From: a virus
Taxonomy: Duplodnaviria; Heunggongvirae; Uroviricota; Caudoviricetes
Direction: 5' to 3' (one strand)
IMG/VR virus record: IMGVR_UViG_2671181028_000014
Length of the DNA: 8,817 bases
Positions 1 to 8,817 of the stretch are shown piece by piece. Under the pieces are notes generated by a model. That model was not told the DNA's origin. It worked only from the letters and a program-made list of their open reading frames with translations, and ran no database searches. Within the stretch, counting starts at the first letter, position 1. Each line of letters begins with the position of its first letter. A program made the position numbers and the translations under genes.

Positions 1-2979
1 GCCAGCGATGCAGAACGGTCTTCTGCCCGTATGCAGCGTTTTATGGAGCGTCAGACTCAGGCCGCCCGGCAGACAACGCAGGCGGCTTCTTCGGCTGCAA
101 CAGCCGCATCCGTCCATGCGCAGACGGTGGAGAAGAACGCACAGGCTCATGAACGCATGGCCCGCGAGGTGGAGAAAACCCGCCAGCGCATGGAGGCGCT
201 GAGCCAGAAAATGCGCGAGGAACAGGCGCAGGCCATGGCTCTGGCGGAGGCTCAGGATAAAGCGGCTGCTGCGTTTTATCGTCAGATTGACAGTGTGAAA
301 CAGGCCGGTGCGGGGCTGCAGGAATTACAGCGTATTCAGCAACAGATCCGACAGGCCAGAAACAGTGGCGGGATTGGTCAGCAGGATTATCTGGCGCTGA
401 TTTCTGAGGTTACGGCGAAAACCCGTGTTCTTACACAGGCTGAGGAAGAGGCTACCCGACAGAAAGTGGCGTTTATCCGTCAGCTTAAAGAGCAGGCAAC
501 CCGCCAGAATCTTTCTTCTTCTGAGTTGCTTCGTGCTAAGGCTGCCCAGCTGGGGGTAAGCAGTGCTGCAGAAGTGTATATCCGCAAAATGGAGCAGGCA
601 GGAAAAGCCACGCATTCGCTGGGTCTGAAAAGTGCAGCAGCCCGTCAGGAGATAGGCGTTCTGATAGGTGAACTGGCCCGCGGCAATTTAGGTGCGCTGA
701 GGGGATCCGGAATAACGCTGGCTAACCGTGCCGGGTGGATAGACACACTGATGTCACCGAAAGGCATGATGCCAGGAGCGGTTATTGGCGGTATTGCCGC
801 GGCTGTCTATGGTCTGGGTAAAGCCTGGTATGACGGTCAGAAGGAGGGGGAAGAATTTAACCGCCAGCTGTCGCTGACGGGGCATTATGCCGGAGTCACT
901 GCCGGGCAGCTGTGGACGCTCAGTCGTGCTATTTCCGGGAATGGTATCACGCAACATGCTGCAGCCGGTGCGCTGGCTCAGGTGGTGGGGAGTGGTGCAT
1001 TTCGTGGAAACGATATCGGTATGGTGGCGAGAGCTGCCGCACAGATGGAGCGATCGGTTGGCCAGTCGGTCAGCGATACCATAAATCAGTTTAAGCGGCT
1101 GAAGGATGATCCTGTAAATGCCGCGAAGGCTCTGGACAATGAGCTGCATTTTCTTACTGCCACTCAGCTTGAGCAGATACGCGTCCTTGGGGAGCAGGGG
1201 CGGTCCAGTGATGCTGCACGGATAGCCATGTCTGCACTGGCAGAGGAAACCGGTCGGCGTACTGCGGATATTGATAATAACCTCAATGCGCTTGGCAGTA
1301 CGCTGAAGTATCTGTCTGATTTGTGGAGTCGTTTCTGGGATGCGGCCATGAATATTGGTCGTGAAGACTCGCTGGATGAACAGATTGCCGCTTTACAGGA
1401 GAAAGTGTCGCGGGCGAAAAGACTCCCCTGGACGGCATCATCTTCTCAGGTTGAATACGATCAGCAGCGTCTTAACGATCTTCAGGAGAAAAAACGCCAG
1501 AAGGATTTGCAGGATGCAAAAGAGCAGGCAGAGCGGAATTATCAGGAGCAACAGAAACGCCGTAATGCTGAAAATGCTGCACTGAACCGGATGAATGAAA
1601 CGGAAGCAGCACGACATCAGCGTGAAATAGCGCGTATTAATGCCATGCAGTACGCCGATCAGGCTGTCAGGGATGCGGCGATACAACGTGAAAATGAACG
1701 TTACGAGAAAGCCCTGGCATCCGGTAAGAAAAAAACACGCGAAACCCGTAATGATGAGGCCACCCGGTTATTGCTGCAGTACAGTCAGCAACAGGCACAG
1801 GTGGAAGGACAGATTGCTGCTGCCAGACAGTCAGCAGGCATTGCCACGGAAAGGATGACAGAAGCGCATAAACAGCTTCTGGCTCTGCAGCAGCGCATCA
1901 GCGACCTGGACGGGAAAAAACTGACGGCAGATGAAAAGAGTGTGCTGGCCCGTAAAGATGAACTGATTCAGGCACTGACGCTGCTGGATGTAAAACAGCA
2001 GGAGCTTCAGAAACAGACGGCACTCAACGAGCTGAAGAAAAAAACAATTCAGCTGACCAGTCAACTGGCTGAAGAAGAGCGCGCTCAGCGTCAGCAACAT
2101 GACCTGGATATCGCCACGGTGGGTATGGGTGATCAGCAGCGGCAGCGATATCAGGTACAACTGAGTCTTCGCCAGAAATACCAGCAACAGCTGGAGCAGT
2201 TGAGGCGGGATAGTGAGCAGAAAGGGATATATAACACTGATGACTACAGAAAGTCCGAGCAGGCGCTGACGGAGAGCCTGAACCGACAACTGAATGAGAA
2301 TCGCCGTTACTGGCAACAGCTTGAAGTTGTGCAGGGTAACTGGAAAAACGGTGCTATGCGGGCGTTTCAGAATTTCACGGCAGATGCGGATAATGCGGCA
2401 GGCACTGCTGAGCAGATGCTTACAGCGGCATTTAACAGTGCAGGTAATGCACTGGCAACGTTCTGTACTACCGGAAAACTGAACTTCAAATCTTTTACCG
2501 CCTCGCTCCTTTCTGATCTGGCAAAAATCATGGCTCAGATGTCCATGATGCAGGCAGTTAAGGGGATTGGTTCGGCGTTTGGCTGGGGGAGTGCAGCAAC
2601 TGCCAGTGTGACGCCCAATGCTGATGGTGGTGTTTATCAGTCTGCTGATTTGAGTCGCTACAGTGGCACGGTGGTTAACCGTCCGACGTTTTTTGCTTTT
2701 GCAAAAGGTGCAGGTGTGATGGGGGAAGCTGGGCCTGAAGCCATTCTGCCTCTGCGTCGTGGTGCTGACGGTAAGCTGGGGGTTGTGGCGGATATTGGTG
2801 GTTCAGGTATGGCGATGTTTGCCCCGCAGTACAACATCGAGATCAATAACGATGGCACGAACGGGCAGATAGGTCCGGCTGCCCTGAAGGTGGTTTATGA
2901 CCTCGGGAAAAAAGCAGCAGCGGACTTTATGCAACAGCAGTCCCGTGATGGTGGTCTGTTCTCCGGAGGTGGACGATGA
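1..2979 (+). CDS. H: Tail tape-measure protein (lambda gpH family), 5'-truncated by window edge
   Basis: Frame 1 is open from nt 1 to the TGA at 2977-2979, so the ATG at 31 is an internal Met (no SD upstream). Long Q/A/E/R-rich coiled-coil region, a hydrophobic segment (MMPGAVIGGIAAAVYGL, nt ~766-828), and a Gly-rich C-terminus ending ...NNDGTNGQIGPAALKVVYD...RDGGLFSGGGR, which closely matches my recollection of the lambda gpH C-terminus. Sits immediately upstream of M with an ATGA stop/start overlap. Confidence 0.9.
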   Translation, partial: ASDAERSSARMQRFMERQTQAARQTTQAASSAATAASVHAQTVEKNAQAHERMAREVEKTRQRMEALSQKMREEQAQAMALAEAQDKAAAAFYRQIDSVKQAGAGLQELQRIQQQIRQARNSGGIGQQDYLALISEVTAKTRVLTQAEEEATRQKVAFIRQLKEQATRQNLSSSELLRAKAAQLGVSSAAEVYIRKMEQAGKATHSLGLKSAAARQEIGVLIGELARGNLGALRGSGITLANRAGWIDTLMSPKGMMPGAVIGGIAAAVYGLGKAWYDGQKEGEEFNRQLSLTGHYAGVTAGQLWTLSRAISGNGITQHAAAGALAQVVGSGAFRGNDIGMVARAAAQMERSVGQSVSDTINQFKRLKDDPVNAAKALDNELHFLTATQLEQIRVLGEQGRSSDAARIAMSALAEETGRRTADIDNNLNALGSTLKYLSDLWSRFWDAAMNIGREDSLDEQIAALQEKVSRAKRLPWTASSSQVEYDQQRLNDLQEKKRQKDLQDAKEQAERNYQEQQKRRNAENAALNRMNETEAARHQREIARINAMQYADQAVRDAAIQRENERYEKALASGKKKTRETRNDEATRLLLQYSQQQAQVEGQIAAARQSAGIATERMTEAHKQLLALQQRISDLDGKKLTADEKSVLARKDELIQALTLLDVKQQELQKQTALNELKKKTIQLTSQLAEEERAQRQQHDLDIATVGMGDQQRQRYQVQLSLRQKYQQQLEQLRRDSEQKGIYNTDDYRKSEQALTESLNRQLNENRRYWQQLEVVQGNWKNGAMRAFQNFTADADNAAGTAEQMLTAAFNSAGNALATFCTTGKLNFKSFTASLLSDLAKIMAQMSMMQAVKGIGSAFGWGSAATASVTPNADGGVYQSADLSRYSGTVVNRPTFFAFAKGAGVMGEAGPEAILPLRRGADGKLGVVADIGGSGMAMFAPQYNIEINNDGTNGQIGPAALKVVYDLGKKAAADFMQQQSRDGGLFSGGGR

Positions 2980-3305
2980 AAACCTTCCGCTGGAAAGTGA
3001 AACCCGGTATGGATGTGGCTTCGGCCCCTTCCGTAATAAAGGTGCGCTTTGGTGATGGCTATTCTCAGCGTGCGCCTGCCGGGCTGAACGCTGACCTGAA
3101 AACGTACAGCGTGACGCTTTCTGTTCCCCGCGAGGAGGCCACGGCACTGGAATCGTTTCTGGCTGAGCACGGGGGCTGGAAGGCCTTTCTGTGGACGCCG
3201 CCTTATGGCTACCGGCAGATAAAGGTGACCTGCGCAAAATGGTCGTCGCGGGTCAGTATGTTGCGTGTTGAGTTCAGCGCAGAGTTTGAACAGGTGGTGA
3301 ACTGA
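2976..3305 (+). CDS. M: Minor tail protein M (tail tip assembly)
   Basis: 109-aa ORF; GGAGG at 2965-2969 six nt upstream of the ATG; start overlaps the tape-measure stop (ATGA at 2976-2979). Sequence (MKTFRWKVKPGMDVASAP...) and length match lambda gpM as I recall it. Confidence 0.92.
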   Translation: MKTFRWKVKPGMDVASAPSVIKVRFGDGYSQRAPAGLNADLKTYSVTLSVPREEATALESFLAEHGGWKAFLWTPPYGYRQIKVTCAKWSSRVSMLRVEFSAEFEQVVN

Positions 3306-4003
3306 TGCAGAATATCCGACAGGAAACACTGAATGAATGCACCCGTGCGGAGCAGTCTGCCAGCGTGGTGCTCTGGGAAATCGATCTGACAGAGGTCGGC
3401 GGAGATCGTTATTTCTTCTGTAATGAGCAGAACGAAAAAGGTGAACCAGTCACCTGGCAGGGGCGGCAGTATCAGGCCTATCCCATTCAGGGAAGTGGAT
3501 TTGAGATGAACGGCAAAGGAGCCAGTGCAAGGCCAACGCTGAAAGTCTCTAATCTGCACGGCATGGTCACCGGGATGGCGGAAGACCTGCAGAGTCTGGT
3601 CGGAGGAACGGTGGTCAGGCGTAAGGTTTACGCCCGTTTTCTGGATGCGGTGAACTTCGTCAACGGAAATAGCGATGCCGATCCGGAGCAGGAGGTGATC
3701 AGCTGCTGGCGCATCGAGCAGTGCAGCGAACTGAGCGCGGTGAGCGCCTCTTTTGTACTGTCCACGCCGACGGAAACGGATGGCGCTGTTTTTCCGGGGC
3801 GCATCATGCTGGCCAACACCTGTACCTGGACCTATCGCGGTGATGAGTGCGGTTATAGCGGTCCGGCTGTCGCGGATGAATATGACCAGCCGACGTCCGA
3901 TATCACGAAAGATAAATGCAGTAAATGCCTGAGTGGCTGTAAGTTTCGCAATAATGTCGGCAACTTTGGCGGCTTCCTTTCCATTAACAAACTTTCGCAG
4001 TAA
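3305..4003 (+). CDS. L: Minor tail protein L (tail tip; Fe-S cluster-binding Cys motif)
   Basis: 232-aa ORF; AGGTGG at 3292-3297 upstream; start ATG overlaps the M stop by 1 nt (TGATG at 3303-3307). C-terminal Cys cluster (CTWTYRGDECGYSG ... CSKCLSGCKF). Length and sequence match lambda gpL as I recall it. Confidence 0.92.
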   Translation: MQNIRQETLNECTRAEQSASVVLWEIDLTEVGGDRYFFCNEQNEKGEPVTWQGRQYQAYPIQGSGFEMNGKGASARPTLKVSNLHGMVTGMAEDLQSLVGGTVVRRKVYARFLDAVNFVNGNSDADPEQEVISCWRIEQCSELSAVSASFVLSTPTETDGAVFPGRIMLANTCTWTYRGDECGYSGPAVADEYDQPTSDITKDKCSKCLSGCKFRNNVGNFGGFLSINKLSQ

Positions 4004-4007
4004 TCCC

Positions 4008-4751
4008 ATGACAGAGACAGAATCAGCGATTCTGGCGCACGCCCGGCGATGTGCGCCAGCGGAGTCGTGCGGCTTCGTGGTGAGAACGCCGGAGGGGGAA
4101 AGATATTTTCCCTGCGTGAATATCTCCGGTGAGCCGGAGGAGTATTTCCGGATGTCGCCGGAGGACTGGCTGCAGGCAGAAATGCAGGGGGAGATTGTGG
4201 CGCTGGTCCACAGTCACCCCGGTGGTCTGCCCTGGCTGAGTGAGGCCGATCGGCGGCTGCAGGTGCAGAGTGATTTGCCGTGGTGGCTGGTCTGCCGGGG
4301 GGAGATTCACAAATTCCGCTGTGTGCCACATCTGACAGGACGGCGCTTTGAGCACGGGGTGACGGACTGTTACACGCTGTTCCGGGATGCCTACCATCTG
4401 GCGGGAATTGATATGCCGGATTTTGAGCGTGAGGATGACTGGTGGCGCAACGGTCAGAACCTTTACCTGGACAATATGGCGGTCACCGGCTTTTACCAGG
4501 TGCCCCTGTCCTCTGCACAGCCGGGCGATATGCTGCTGTGCTGCTTTGGTGCGTCGGTGCCGAATCATGCCGCCATTTACTGTGGTGACGGCGAGCTGCT
4601 GCACCATATTCCTGAACAACTGAGCAAACGAGAGAGGTATACCGACAAATGGCAGCGACGCACACACTCCCTCTGGCGTCACCGGGCATGGCACGCATCT
4701 GCCTTTACGGGGATTTACAACGATTTGGTCGCCGCATCGACCTTCGTGTGA
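4008..4751 (+). CDS. K: Tail assembly protein K (N-terminal MPN/JAMM-like domain + C-terminal NlpC/P60-like domain)
   Basis: ORF in frame 3. JAMM signature HSHPGGLPWLSEAD (H-x-H-x7-S-x2-D) with an upstream Glu (CAPAESCGF); C-terminal region has a candidate NlpC/P60 catalytic Cys (GVTDCYTLF) and His (VPNHAAIY). Start chosen as the first ATG after the L stop (4008) so that the MPN domain is complete; the lambda-style annotated start corresponds to the in-frame ATG at 4152. No strong SD before 4008, so the start is uncertain. Confidence 0.85.
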   Translation: MTETESAILAHARRCAPAESCGFVVRTPEGERYFPCVNISGEPEEYFRMSPEDWLQAEMQGEIVALVHSHPGGLPWLSEADRRLQVQSDLPWWLVCRGEIHKFRCVPHLTGRRFEHGVTDCYTLFRDAYHLAGIDMPDFEREDDWWRNGQNLYLDNMAVTGFYQVPLSSAQPGDMLLCCFGASVPNHAAIYCGDGELLHHIPEQLSKRERYTDKWQRRTHSLWRHRAWHASAFTGIYNDLVAASTFV

Positions 4752-5290
4752 AAACGGGGGCTGAAGCCATCCGGGCGCTGGCCACGCAGCTTCCGGCGTT
4801 TCGCCAGAAACTGAATGAGGGCTGGTATCAGGTGCGCATTTCCGGGCGTGATGCAGGCGAAAACGAATTATCTGCCCGTCTTAATGAGCCGCTGGCAAAT
4901 GGTGCCGTGATCCACATCGTACCGCGTCTGGCGGGTGCCAAAAGTGGCGGTATTTTTCAGGCAGTGCTGGGTGCGGCGCTAATTGCTACGGCAATCTGGA
5001 TGCCGGGGCTTAGTATTGTTGCAAGTAATCTCATGTTCTCTCTTGGGGCAGGTATGGTTTTAGGCGGTGTTGCGCAGATGCTGGCACCGAAAGCCAAAAC
5101 GCCTAAAGTGTCAGCCACTGATAACGGTAAGCAAAATACCTATTTTTCCTCATTGGATAACATGGTTGCCCAGGGCAATGTCCTGCCTGTTCTGTACGGT
5201 GAAATGCGCGTGGGGTCACGTGTGGCATCTCAGGAGATCAGCACGGCAGATGAAGGGGATGGTGGTCAGGTTGTGGTAATTGGGCGGTAA
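4649..5290 (+). CDS. I: Tail assembly protein I (ubiquitin-like N-terminus, hydrophobic central region)
   Basis: 213-aa ORF starting MAATHTLPLASPGMARICLYGDL...; GAGG at 4634-4637 upstream; overlaps the 3' end of K by 103 nt in a different frame, as I recall for lambda K/I. Ends ...EGDGGQVVVIGR, then TAA at 5288-5290. Confidence 0.9.
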   Translation: MAATHTLPLASPGMARICLYGDLQRFGRRIDLRVKTGAEAIRALATQLPAFRQKLNEGWYQVRISGRDAGENELSARLNEPLANGAVIHIVPRLAGAKSGGIFQAVLGAALIATAIWMPGLSIVASNLMFSLGAGMVLGGVAQMLAPKAKTPKVSATDNGKQNTYFSSLDNMVAQGNVLPVLYGEMRVGSRVASQEISTADEGDGGQVVVIGR

Positions 5291-5350
5291 TATTATTTAC
5301 TCATGTTCTAACTGATTTAATATTTATATCGAACACTGATAATTATTCTG
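5291..5350 (+). promoter_or_regulatory. Putative sigma70-type promoter region for the inserted lipoprotein gene (AT-rich)
   Basis: ~70% AT intergenic stretch immediately upstream of the lipoprotein gene. Weak -35-like TTTACT (5296-5301) and -10-like TAATAT (5318-5323) with a 16-nt spacer; other -10-like hexamers (TATTTA, TATATC) nearby. By eye only, no experimental support. Confidence 0.3.
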
Positions 5351-5362
5351 TTGGTTAGCTAT

Positions 5363-5701
5363 ATGAACAAAACGATTTTATTCTGCACGATTATTGCCTT
5401 AACAGGATGTAAATCTTTGGATTACGTAAAATCCGGCAAGCCTGTAATGGAAGGTAATTCATTAAAAAATATTGATGAATTGTCAGGCTGCATATCTAGA
5501 CAATGGGCTGGTAATGGAACACCTATAACATCCATTCCTATTGAGAATGGGGTAAGCCTTTTAGTTCCACAGGCTATGGGTGGGTATGATGTTGTGCTTG
5601 ATATCAAAAAAGCAGGAAATGGCAGTAGTTTTACTCTTTATGAACGCGTACCAGCATTAACGCCAAAAATTTTTGCTGATAGTGTTAATGCATGTAAATA
5701 A
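5363..5701 (+). CDS. Predicted outer-membrane lipoprotein of unknown function (moron between I and J)
   Basis: 112-aa ORF from the ATG at 5363 (the ORF track begins at an upstream TTG, 5351). N-terminus MNKTILFCTIIALTG|C has a basic n-region, hydrophobic h-region and an L-T-G-C lipobox; the residue after the lipidated Cys is Lys, not Asp, implying Lol sorting to the outer membrane. Gene is ~30-35% GC against >55% in the flanking tail genes. Followed by an intrinsic terminator. No SD is obvious. Confidence 0.8.
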   Translation: MNKTILFCTIIALTGCKSLDYVKSGKPVMEGNSLKNIDELSGCISRQWAGNGTPITSIPIENGVSLLVPQAMGGYDVVLDIKKAGNGSSFTLYERVPALTPKIFADSVNACK

Positions 5702-5724
5702 TAGTTAATCCTGCCGTAACTCAT

Positions 5725-5755
5725 GAGCCGCCTTTTGGGCGGCTTTGTTGTTTAT
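5725..5755 (+). terminator. Rho-independent terminator downstream of the lipoprotein gene
   Basis: GC-rich hairpin AGCCGCC (5726-5732) / GGCGGCT (5738-5744), 7 bp stem with a 5-nt loop (TTTTG), followed directly by a T-rich tract TTTGTTGTTTAT (5745-5755). Lies 24 nt after the lipoprotein stop and ~13 nt before the J ribosome-binding site. Confidence 0.7.
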
Positions 5756-5764
5756 GGAGTGTGA

Positions 5765-8817
<3,053 letters not shown>

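Follow-up and report, generated by a model that had tools for sequence, protein, structure and literature searches.

A long-class lambdoid tape-measure gene of an E. coli prophage type, with an N-terminal insertion relative to lambda gpH and a probable recombination joint to a lambda-type tail tip module

The window, a stretch of 8,817 nucleotides of viral DNA (IMG/VR record IMGVR_UViG_2671181028_000014), opens inside a long reading frame that is followed by lambda-like tail genes. The locus raises the question of what this frame encodes, where its length comes from, and whether it was joined to its neighbors by recombination. A preliminary description of the same DNA had proposed a tape-measure protein (TMP) of more than 990 codons, lacking its N-terminus and longer than lambda gpH (~853 aa). 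Both points held, as frame 1 is open from position 1 to 2979 with 992 codons and a TGA stop at 2977-2979, 32 codons are absent, and the full protein has 1024 aa compared to 853 aa in lambda. Our main reading, which we consider to have a probability of about 0.85, is that positions 1-2979 encode residues 33-1024 of the tail TMP of an E. coli lambdoid prophage belonging to the long gpH class. The protein would be a colinear, diverged homologue of gpH with an N-terminal insertion, and its shaft module would have recombined about 10 codons before the stop onto a lambda-type tip module.

The gene was identified through its close relatives and through profile matches. The closest complete prophage is that of E. 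coli DEC9B, which is 99.5% identical over the whole window. By comparison with the annotations of this prophage and of phage phi458, in both of which the full TMP gene is annotated at 3075 nt (1024 aa), the window lacks the first 96 nt (32 codons) of the gene. The TMP DNA is 95-98.6% identical to the annotated TMP genes of phi458, vB_EcoS-813R6, mEp460, and cdtI, and the protein is 90-97% identical to the 120 listed database representatives, of which 93 are 1020 or 1021 aa long. Three Pfam domains were matched: TMP_2 (PF06791, 167.5 bits, cut-off 30.2), TMP_4, and Tape_meas_lam_C (PF09718, 83.7 bits, cut-off 23). TIGR01541 was matched at 308.5 bits (cut-off 104.75), phrog_24 was also matched, and phmmer found the lambda gpH chains of PDB entries 8IYK/8IYL/8K35 with an E-value of 4e-46. 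An Rfam scan of the window gave no matches. The position is that of a gpH-family gene: M overlaps the TMP stop, just as H and M adjoin in lambda with the stop of one overlapping the start of the other, and G and T lie upstream in relatives, a placement read from DEC9B, phi458, and mEp460 (95-99.5% identical) outside the window itself. The window TMP is a member of the long gpH class, of which mEp460, cdtI, and phi458 are the type examples and Fels-1, Gifsy-1/-2, and phi80 more distant relatives. Judged from the alignments, near-identity to the named members, a length of 1020-1024 aa, and the N-terminal insertion all point to this class. The features of the window are listed in Table 1.

Table 1. 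Features of the tape-measure gene and the adjoining tail tip genes in the window (aa positions count from the first codon of the window).
Feature	Position	Strand	Evidence and remarks
Tail tape-measure protein (TMP) gene, long lambdoid type (mEp460/cdtI/phi458 type)	1..2979	+	5'-cut; codons 33-1024 and stop; frame, Pfam, TIGR01541, phrog_24, DNA identity
Predicted helical insertion relative to lambda gpH, ~171 aa (aa 25-196)	73..588	+	Pfam offsets, BLASTP, MAFFT gap
TMP_2 domain (aa 196-394)	586..1182	+	PF06791, E 4e-49; aligns to gpH 120-256
Central helical ruler segment (aa 395-778), including TMP_4 (aa 584-661)	1183..2334	+	Colinear with gpH ~257-626, 20% identity; long helices predicted
Tape_meas_lam_C domain (aa 779-853)	2335..2559	+	PF09718, E 9e-24
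Internal mosaic patch	2340..2650 (approximate)	+	51-72% identical to mEp460, remainder of gene 97-100%; sliding profile
Conserved block INNDGTNGQIGPAALKVVYD, not type-specific	2842..2901	+	6/60 nt differ from lambda; 27-nt perfect run
Counterpart of the gpI-docking C-terminal helix, gpH 818-849 (aa 957-988)	2869..2964	+	PDB 9E7M chain Ha (32 aa), E 2e-6
Long-type-specific block LGKKAAADFMQQQS	2902..2943	+	26/42 nt differ from lambda; 2/42 from mEp460
Crossover interval between mEp460-type body and lambda-type tip module, in short patch CGTGATGGTGG common to both	2941..2955	+	Codon-level comparison
Gene M (distal tail protein), lambda type	2976..3305	+	Start overlaps TMP stop (ATGA); 93% to gpM; Pfam Phage_min_tail
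Gene L (tail tip), lambda type	3305..4003	+	95% to lambda gpL
Gene K (JAB and NlpC/P60 peptidase), lambda type	4008..4751	+	98% to gpK; both Pfam domains
Gene I (tail tip plug, partner of TMP C-terminal helix), mosaic	4688..5290	+	76% to gpI; middle mEp460-like, not lambda-like
Gene J (central fibre, host specificity), lambda type, runs off 3' end	5768..8817	+	94% DNA to lambda; protein 88.5% in DEC9B

The alignment to lambda H that the preliminary description called for came out colinear but not uniformly similar along its length (20-32% in the body and 35/46 at the end). One BLASTP HSP joins residues 257-992 of the window TMP to gpH 120-853 (E 2e-51), residues 2-56 of the full-length protein align to gpH 3-57, a match over the N-terminal 55 residues, and both shared Pfam domains occur in the same order. 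With an overall identity of 26%, the alignments indicate that the TMP is a colinear and strongly diverged homologue of gpH. A conserved N-terminus is followed by TMP_2, which contains a hydrophobic segment, and then by the long helical centre; after Tape_meas_lam_C come a Gly-rich stretch that is not helical and, at the end, a terminal helix. The hydrophobic segment (~aa 252-280) lies inside TMP_2 and corresponds to gpH 116-140, and the Gly-rich non-helical stretch is found at aa 847-958, lambda being likewise. Lambda gpH (853 aa; PDB 8IYK, 8K35, 9E7M) shares with the window TMP the hydrophobic segments and the Gly-rich stretch, and its gpI-docking C-terminal helix has a sequence counterpart there. 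Helices were taken from a structure prediction made from the single sequence, of which the secondary structure alone was used since its confidence was low (pLDDT 48.8).

The extra length over lambda is accounted for in whole by one N-terminal helical insertion, which lambda gpH does not have. TMP_2 starts at residue 228 of the full-length protein compared to residue 54 in lambda, an offset of 174 aa in Pfam coordinates, and the insertion extends from residue ~57 to residue ~228 in full-length numbering, with a net gain of 171 aa. Pfam offsets, alignment, and per-segment identities agreed on this site. The insertion is 52% Q+E+R+A and was predicted as a continuous helix. It is common to phi80 gp16 and the TMPs of Fels-1, Gifsy-1/-2, and mEp043/213, with 46-69% amino acid identity, and was found in 37 phage records. 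The preliminary description had placed the extra length in the coiled-coil centre of the protein instead, a location that the Pfam offsets, BLASTP, and the MAFFT alignment all contradict.

One possible explanation of the extra length, along the lines of that earlier placement, is that the Q/E/R/A-rich centre (nt 1380-2300) is both the extra length and the foreign part of a mosaic, taken from another TMP or made by internal duplication. The preliminary description had pointed to this stretch as unfamiliar from lambda. Its composition and structure were described correctly, as aa 460-767 are 47% Q+E+R+A and almost all helical in the secondary structure of the low-confidence model, and identity to lambda in the centre is only ~20%. 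However, the equivalent segment of lambda gpH (aa 257-626) is itself 44% Q+E+R+A, of nearly equal length, and colinear, the single HSP spanning the whole centre. The centre is therefore diverged from lambda and not foreign. TMP_2 and Tape_meas_lam_C are separated by 385 aa in the window TMP and by 371 aa in lambda, which contradicts the centre as the source of the length, and a sliding identity profile against mEp460 stayed at 97-100% throughout the centre without interruption. Internal duplication was rejected as a source of the extra length since Tandem Repeats Finder reported nothing on 1-2979 and no significant self-similarity was detected. In composition-corrected BLASTP, the insertion matched the rest of the protein and gpH with E-values of at least 0.03; lower E-values appeared solely with the correction switched off, reflecting composition bias. 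We consider an origin of the extra length in a foreign or duplicated centre hardly credible, and the N-terminal insertion remains our explanation for it.

The C-terminal end is where the gene comes closest to lambda. The last 46 residues are identical to gpH at 35 of 46 positions, compared to 20-32% identity in all other aligned segments, which supports the earlier statement that the C-terminal ~50 residues look lambda-like. They are not one lambda-like block, as that statement implied, but three: nt 2842-2901 are not type-specific, 2902-2943 are of the long type, and 2944-2979 are of the lambda type. At the DNA level, likeness to lambda starts abruptly at nt 2841 and within the TMP gene is confined to the last 139 nt. 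In the first block, lambda-type genes differ among themselves by 8-17 nt, more than the 6 nt that separate the window from lambda, and five of these six differences are synonymous. The last 12 codons (2944-2979) are the sole recently lambda-type part of the TMP end, with one difference in 36 nt. Upstream of the crossover the window equals mEp460, which diverges from position 2956 onward. E. coli matches starting at nt 2841 were considered as a third TMP body type, but these belonged to lambda-type TMPs of the usual kind, 849-853 aa long.

The crossover falls inside the counterpart of a functional helix. In lambda, three copies of the C-terminal helix of gpH (residues 818-849) dock together on the trimeric gpI of the tail tip (PMC12617516, PMC10721106). 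A helix was predicted at aa 959-979 of the window TMP, and the central 14 residues of the docking-helix counterpart differ from lambda.

On both sides of this point, the tail genes differ sharply in their relation to lambda. Among the shaft proteins of the DEC9B prophage, identity to lambda is 41% for Z, 53% for U, 55% for V, 33% for G, 38% for T, and 26% for H, in contrast to 93% for M, 95% for L, 98% for K, 76% for I, and 88.5% for J in the tip. The picture of two modules was drawn from relatives with 98-99.5% identity, as the window itself is without the first 32 TMP codons and all shaft genes. The DNA of gene M is 90-98% identical to lambda and 48-77% identical to mEp460. These comparisons indicate that a non-lambda shaft module (Z-U-V-G-T-H) was joined to a lambda-type tip module (M-L-K-I-J) by homologous recombination in a short shared patch ~10 codons before the stop. 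The proposal in the preliminary description that recombination had joined a lambda-like tip to a different shaft or tape-measure segment is thus borne out, with 26-55% identity upstream, 76-98% downstream, and a crossover at ~2941-2955, although the mosaicism is finer than proposed.

Another possible explanation is that there was no recombination, and that the lambda-like C-terminus reflects purifying selection on the part that docks on the tip while the rest diverged vertically from the lambda gene. Docking of the helix on the gpI trimer is a conserved structural role, the predominance of synonymous differences in 2842-2901 is expected under selection, and the motif is retained by Fels-1 too. 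Selection on the protein does not fit the jump in nucleotide identity to lambda from ~47% (41/87 nt, 2755-2841) to 35/36 nt at 2944-2979, followed by 90-98% through gene M with synonymous sites included. Also, mEp460 has the same gene body but another end and a gene M at 48-77% from exactly this point, and in block 2842-2901 the difference between types (6 nt) is smaller than that within the lambda type (8-17 nt). The end types and patch types are freely reassorted among the 120 representatives as well. Vertical divergence under selection is therefore very unlikely, and recombination remains the preferred reading.

Comparison with named phages separated two groups of close relatives. The TMP genes of phi458 (UYE91770.1), vB_EcoS-813R6, and 500465-3 are 98.3-98.6% identical to the window in DNA over all 2979 nt. 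They have the same patch variant as the window, their last 12 codons and gene M are likewise of the lambda type, and they differ from it within the TMP gene by point differences alone. In contrast, mEp460 (YP_007112087.1), cdtI, Ayreon, and Tritos have a TMP of the same type (1021 aa) with ~95% DNA identity over nt 1-2960. These are 97-100% identical to the window outside one patch, and differ from it by another patch variant at nt ~2340-2650 (51-72%), by their last 8 codons (RLSGAYR), and by a gene M of another type. At a greater distance, phi80 gp16 (1045 aa) is of the long class, with an insertion 48% identical and 38% identity overall, but its C-terminal end is unrelated and its tip module is of another kind. 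The Fels-1 TMP (1053 aa) is of the long class with 60% identity overall and an mEp460-type end, and the Salmonella phages Fels-1 and Gifsy-1/-2 have the same insertion at 63-69% identity.

There are additional small exchanged patches within the 3' third of the TMP gene. Among phage records, the window's variant of the patch was found only in 500465-3, 813R6, and phi458, where it accompanies the lambda-type end alone. Among the 120 database representatives, the patch variants reassort freely with the C-terminal end variants, the window-like patch (type A) being combined with an mEp-type end in 33, with a lambda-type end in 4, and with ends of other kinds in 15. Co-adaptation of the patch with the C-terminal end or the type of M was rejected on this basis. 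Co-inheritance of the docking helix with the type of gpI was likewise rejected, as phi458 combines the window's helix with a lambda-type middle of gene I and the middle in the window is of the mEp460 type; strict linkage between the helix and the gpI type is absent. The insert between I and J in the window is absent from phi458. [quoted passage not shown]

A broader and quite improbable reading is that the 3' end of gpH-family genes is a preferred exchange point, reassorting ruler/shaft modules of ~850 and ~1020 aa with tip/host-range modules, or else that the N-terminal insertion has a role other than length. Block 2842-2901 and the short shared patch 2944-2955 would serve such an exchange. 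Lying inside the gpI-docking helix, the exchange point would give rise to hybrid docking helices, which would still need to fit gpI.

By analogy with the gpH family, the TMP would work as in lambda, where extended helical copies are held in the tip complex by their C-terminal helix, which sits on the gpI plug. These copies would serve as the template along which the major tail protein polymerises up to the TMP N-terminus, and would afterwards exit the tube, aiding DNA entry. Proteolysis in the gpH family yields gpH* and a C-terminal fragment, but the Gly-rich stretch of the window TMP does not by itself indicate such cleavage. The preliminary description had expected a longer tail than that of lambda. 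At 0.145-0.15 nm of tail per residue, the ruler relation given in PMC5099701, it is a reasonable inference that the insertion would add ~26 nm, or ~6 tube rings, to a lambda-sized tail. A literature search for the tail lengths of cdtI, mEp460, phi458, and phi80 yielded for the long TMP type the Ayreon figure alone, ~120 nm, which is a rough and uncalibrated value from a genome announcement (PMC5764929). Ayreon has a long-type TMP with 95% DNA identity to the window, and a tail of ~120 nm is not longer than that of lambda; this figure does not support a longer tail.

This could be explained if the insertion lay outside the ruler, acting in chaperone binding, head-proximal interactions, or the DNA-entry channel, with tails no longer than those of lambda. 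In lambda, N-terminal parts of gpH* were modelled in the trans-envelope channel. In TP901-1, infectivity depends on the N-terminal 154 residues in ways that go beyond length, but duplication or deletion in the N-terminus altered tail length proportionally (PMC5099701). The insertion was also predicted to be a continuous helix with the same composition as the ruler centre, and long-type TMPs stay at 1020-1024 aa despite frequent patch exchange, as expected of a length-determining protein. The Ayreon value, for its part, is approximate and lacks calibration against lambda. These points suggest that a role outside the ruler is the less likely reading, though it keeps an appreciable chance, and that the insertion would more probably lengthen the tail.

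The long-type TMP gene is an ordinary, already catalogued tail ruler gene of E. coli prophages. Its type, length class, and position are already annotated in cdtI, mEp460, phi458, Ayreon, and thousands of E. coli genomes, and the significance of the present analysis beyond correct annotation is slight. That lambdoid phages exchange modules is textbook knowledge. What is added is a position for the shaft/tip crossover, within the gpI-docking helix and ~10 codons short of the H stop, and the assignment of the length excess over lambda to an N-terminal insertion common to phi80 and the Gifsy phages. A longer tail in this very common prophage type stays a prediction. In the set of 5426 complete E. 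coli genomes, DNA of the N-terminal insertion was present in 1844 (about a third), the window was covered to at least 80% in 1816, and the exact junction haplotype occurred in 89.

The reading frame at window nt 1-2979 (+ strand, frame 1) contains 992 open codons and ends in a TGA at 2977-2979. Comparison with the E. coli DEC9B prophage, phi458 and mEp460 placed the window start 96 nt inside the full tape-measure protein (TMP) gene, in agreement with the preliminary description, which had reported more than 990 TMP codons with the N-terminus missing. The next gene, M, begins at 2976 with an ATG that overlaps the TMP stop, an arrangement also seen for lambda H and M, and is followed by homologues of lambda L, K and I, a small low-GC insert, and J, which runs off the window. 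The TMP scored 308 bits with NCBIfam TIGR01541 (cut-off 105), and PHROG 24 ("tail length tape measure protein") spans the entire window protein. No tandem repeats were found in 1-2979, and no Rfam family matched at any point in the window. Family models, colinear homology and gene position all place this gene in the family of lambda gpH.

Over all 2979 nt, the gene is 98.3-98.6% identical in DNA to vB_EcoS-813R6, 500465-3 and phi458, and over nt 1-2960 it is ~95% identical to mEp460, cdtI, Ayreon, Tritos and others. The matching phage records call the gene a tape-measure or tail protein, except that of 500465-3, which has no annotation. The best genome match, at 99.5% across the whole window, was a prophage adjoining dusA in DEC9B. 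The full gene is 3075 nt (1024 aa) in DEC9B and phi458 and encodes 1021 aa in mEp460. Thousands of protein database entries bear the name "phage tail tape measure protein [Escherichia coli]" (a single cluster holds 10,008 sequences), 93 of 120 database representatives are 1020 or 1021 aa long, and 1844 of 5426 complete E. coli genomes carry DNA of the diagnostic N-terminal segment. The window TMP is a near-identical member of a long class whose annotated sequences were already available from cdtI, mEp460, phi458 and Ayreon and from thousands of E. coli prophages. Known kinds cover everything in the gene, and the finding is real but ordinary.

The TMP was correctly described as longer than gpH, with a net difference of +171 aa. 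The source of this length was examined domain by domain (see table). The window-type protein has 174 aa more than lambda before TMP_2, 4 fewer within it, 14 more between TMP_2 and Tape_meas_lam_C (385 vs 371 aa) and 13 fewer past Tape_meas_lam_C, which indicates that the extra length is one N-terminal insertion. The insertion has a Q+E+R+A content of 52% and is predicted to be helical. With correction for composition, neither the remainder of the protein nor gpH was significantly similar to it. It also occurs elsewhere, at 46-69% aa identity, in phi80 gp16 (1045 aa), Fels-1 (1053 aa), Gifsy-1/-2, mEp043/mEp213 and others.

Features of the TMP gene and of the insert between I and J
Feature	Window nt	Window aa	Details
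N-terminal insertion	73-588	25-196	full-length residues ~57-~228
TMP_2 (Pfam)		196-394	full-length 228-426; gpH 54-256
TMP_4 (Pfam)		584-661	
Tape_meas_lam_C (Pfam)		779-853	full-length 811-885; gpH 627-701
Long-type body	2755-2841		lambda 41/87 identical; mEp460 identical
Not type-specific (INNDGTNGQIGPAALKVVYD)	2842-2901		lambda 6 differences/60 nt, 27-nt perfect run; mEp460 identical
Long-type-specific	2902-2943		lambda 26 differences/42 nt; mEp460 2 differences
Lambda-type, on into lambda-type M	2944-2979		lambda 1 difference/36 nt; mEp460 12 differences
ORF in I/J insert	5363-5701 (+)		112-aa protein, lipoprotein-type signal and lipobox (MNKTILFCTIIALTGC)

The preliminary description had instead seen a foreign tape-measure segment in the Q/E/R/A-rich, coiled-coil-like centre (nt 1380-2300). 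The composition stands, since residues 460-767 are 47% Q+E+R+A with long predicted helices. A foreign origin, or a role as the source of the extra length, was ruled out: the lambda counterpart, gpH 257-626, has a Q+E+R+A content of 44% and almost the same length, and the alignment passes unbroken through the centre at ~20% identity. The centre is a diverged counterpart of lambda's own ruler centre. The alignment with lambda H suggested as a check gave one colinear BLASTP match (window aa 257-992 vs gpH 120-853, 26% identity, E 2e-51), which speaks against a foreign segment. Residues 2-56 of the full-length protein also align to gpH 3-57 at 33% identity.

In the standard view, lambdoid phages evolve by exchanging modules between shaft and tip genes. 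The proposed joining of a lambda-like tip to a different shaft held up. In the DEC9B prophage, shaft proteins share 26-55% identity with lambda (Z 41%, U 53%, V 55%, G 33%, T 38%, H 26%) vs 76-98% for tip proteins (M 93%, L 95%, K 98%, I 76%, J 88.5%). DNA similarity to lambda runs at 87-94% from nt 2841 to the window end, excepting the insert at 5287-5736. A comparison of the last 75 codons one by one resolved four segments (see table), and the between-type difference in block 2842-2901 was smaller than the 8-17 differences found within lambda-type genes. mEp460 changes over to RLSGAYR in the last of these segments, and its M gene is only 48-77% identical to the window's. Together with the segment pattern, this places the crossover from long-type body to lambda-type tip near nt 2941-2955, within a short patch that both types share, ~10 codons before the stop. 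The C-terminal ~50 residues, described as lambda-like, are therefore so only in part: a block that is not type-specific is followed by a long-type-specific one, and the last 12 codons are of lambda type. The exact junction haplotype (nt 2660-3240) occurs in 89 of 5426 genomes. The many E. coli matches beginning at nt 2841 were ordinary lambda-type genes (849-853 aa). Overall, the preliminary observation was confirmed and its interpretation partly supported.

A second variable patch lies at nt ~2340-2650, where identity to mEp460 is 51-72% vs 97-100% across the rest of the gene. Among phage records, only 500465-3, 813R6 and phi458 have the window's variant. All combinations of patch and end variants were seen among the 120 database representatives; these are independent exchanges, not a co-adapted pair.

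In lambda cryo-EM structures, gpH residues 818-849 are helical and dock as a trimer on trimeric gpI within the tip; gpH occupies the lumen of the 32-ring gpV tube, and gpH* is later part of a trans-envelope channel (PMC12617516, PMC10721106). The counterpart of the docking helix is window aa 957-988 (nt 2869-2964; PDB chain 9E7M_Ha, E 2e-6), with a helix predicted at aa 959-979. Since the crossover falls inside it, the predicted docking helix is a hybrid, long-type in its centre and lambda-type in its last residues. Linkage between helix type and gpI type is not strict, as phi458 has the same helix but a lambda-type gpI middle, whereas the window's is mEp460-like. The middle of gene I (~4800-5130) has no more than 48-62% identity to lambda and phi458, but over 4800-4950 it is 95-98% identical to mEp460, so the tip module is itself a patchwork.

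By family membership, the window TMP would act as a ruler. The ruler constant is 0.145-0.15 nm per residue, and in TP901-1 an N-terminal duplication or deletion shifted tail length proportionally (PMC5099701). Applied to 171 extra helical residues, this predicts a tail ~26 nm, or ~6 rings, longer than lambda's with its 32. Patch exchange has left the TMP length tightly conserved (1020-1024 aa), which is in keeping with a length-determining role. Among phages with this TMP type, a tail measurement was found in the literature only for Ayreon, whose "long flexible tails (±120 nm)" (genome announcement, PMC5764929) are not longer than lambda's. The Ayreon figure is approximate and uncalibrated, and the longer tail is therefore a prediction only. 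That the tail is no longer than lambda's is considered rather unlikely.

The I/J insert is of low GC (35-42%) and absent from lambda, phi458 and mEp460. A terminator-like hairpin lies 3' of its ORF at 5725-5745, and this arrangement is the one usual for a moron; phi80 has an unrelated moron (morF) at the same position. The protein had no Pfam, NCBIfam or PADLOC match, only phrog_914 (unknown function), and its phage matches were limited to two phages, Fraca and LMessi, at 30-33% aa identity. The insert DNA was present in 337 of the 5426 E. coli genomes. Our guess is a putative superinfection-exclusion lipoprotein.

Gene K (4008-4751) encodes 247 aa with JAB and NlpC/P60 domains. Lambda K, annotated at 199 aa in the old record, aligns only to residues 49-247, so its annotated start is probably too late. 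In the 3' part of J (8350-8783), identity to phi458 drops to 78%, while that to lambda holds at ~94% as far as 8713; this part, the receptor-binding end, varies among otherwise close relatives. A 238-nt stretch near the end of the Aeromonas phage AP1 record (MT713136, 254 kb), unannotated there, is 99.2% identical to window 1639-1876 in the TMP gene and is probably contamination or an assembly artefact. In the 99.5%-matching DEC9B prophage beside dusA (NZ_CP074760.1; regions 24720-25370 and 26274-27371), the tail fibre genes are followed downstream by nleG7, a type III effector gene. The probable source of the window is therefore a lambdoid prophage that carries an effector, in an EPEC/EHEC-like strain.
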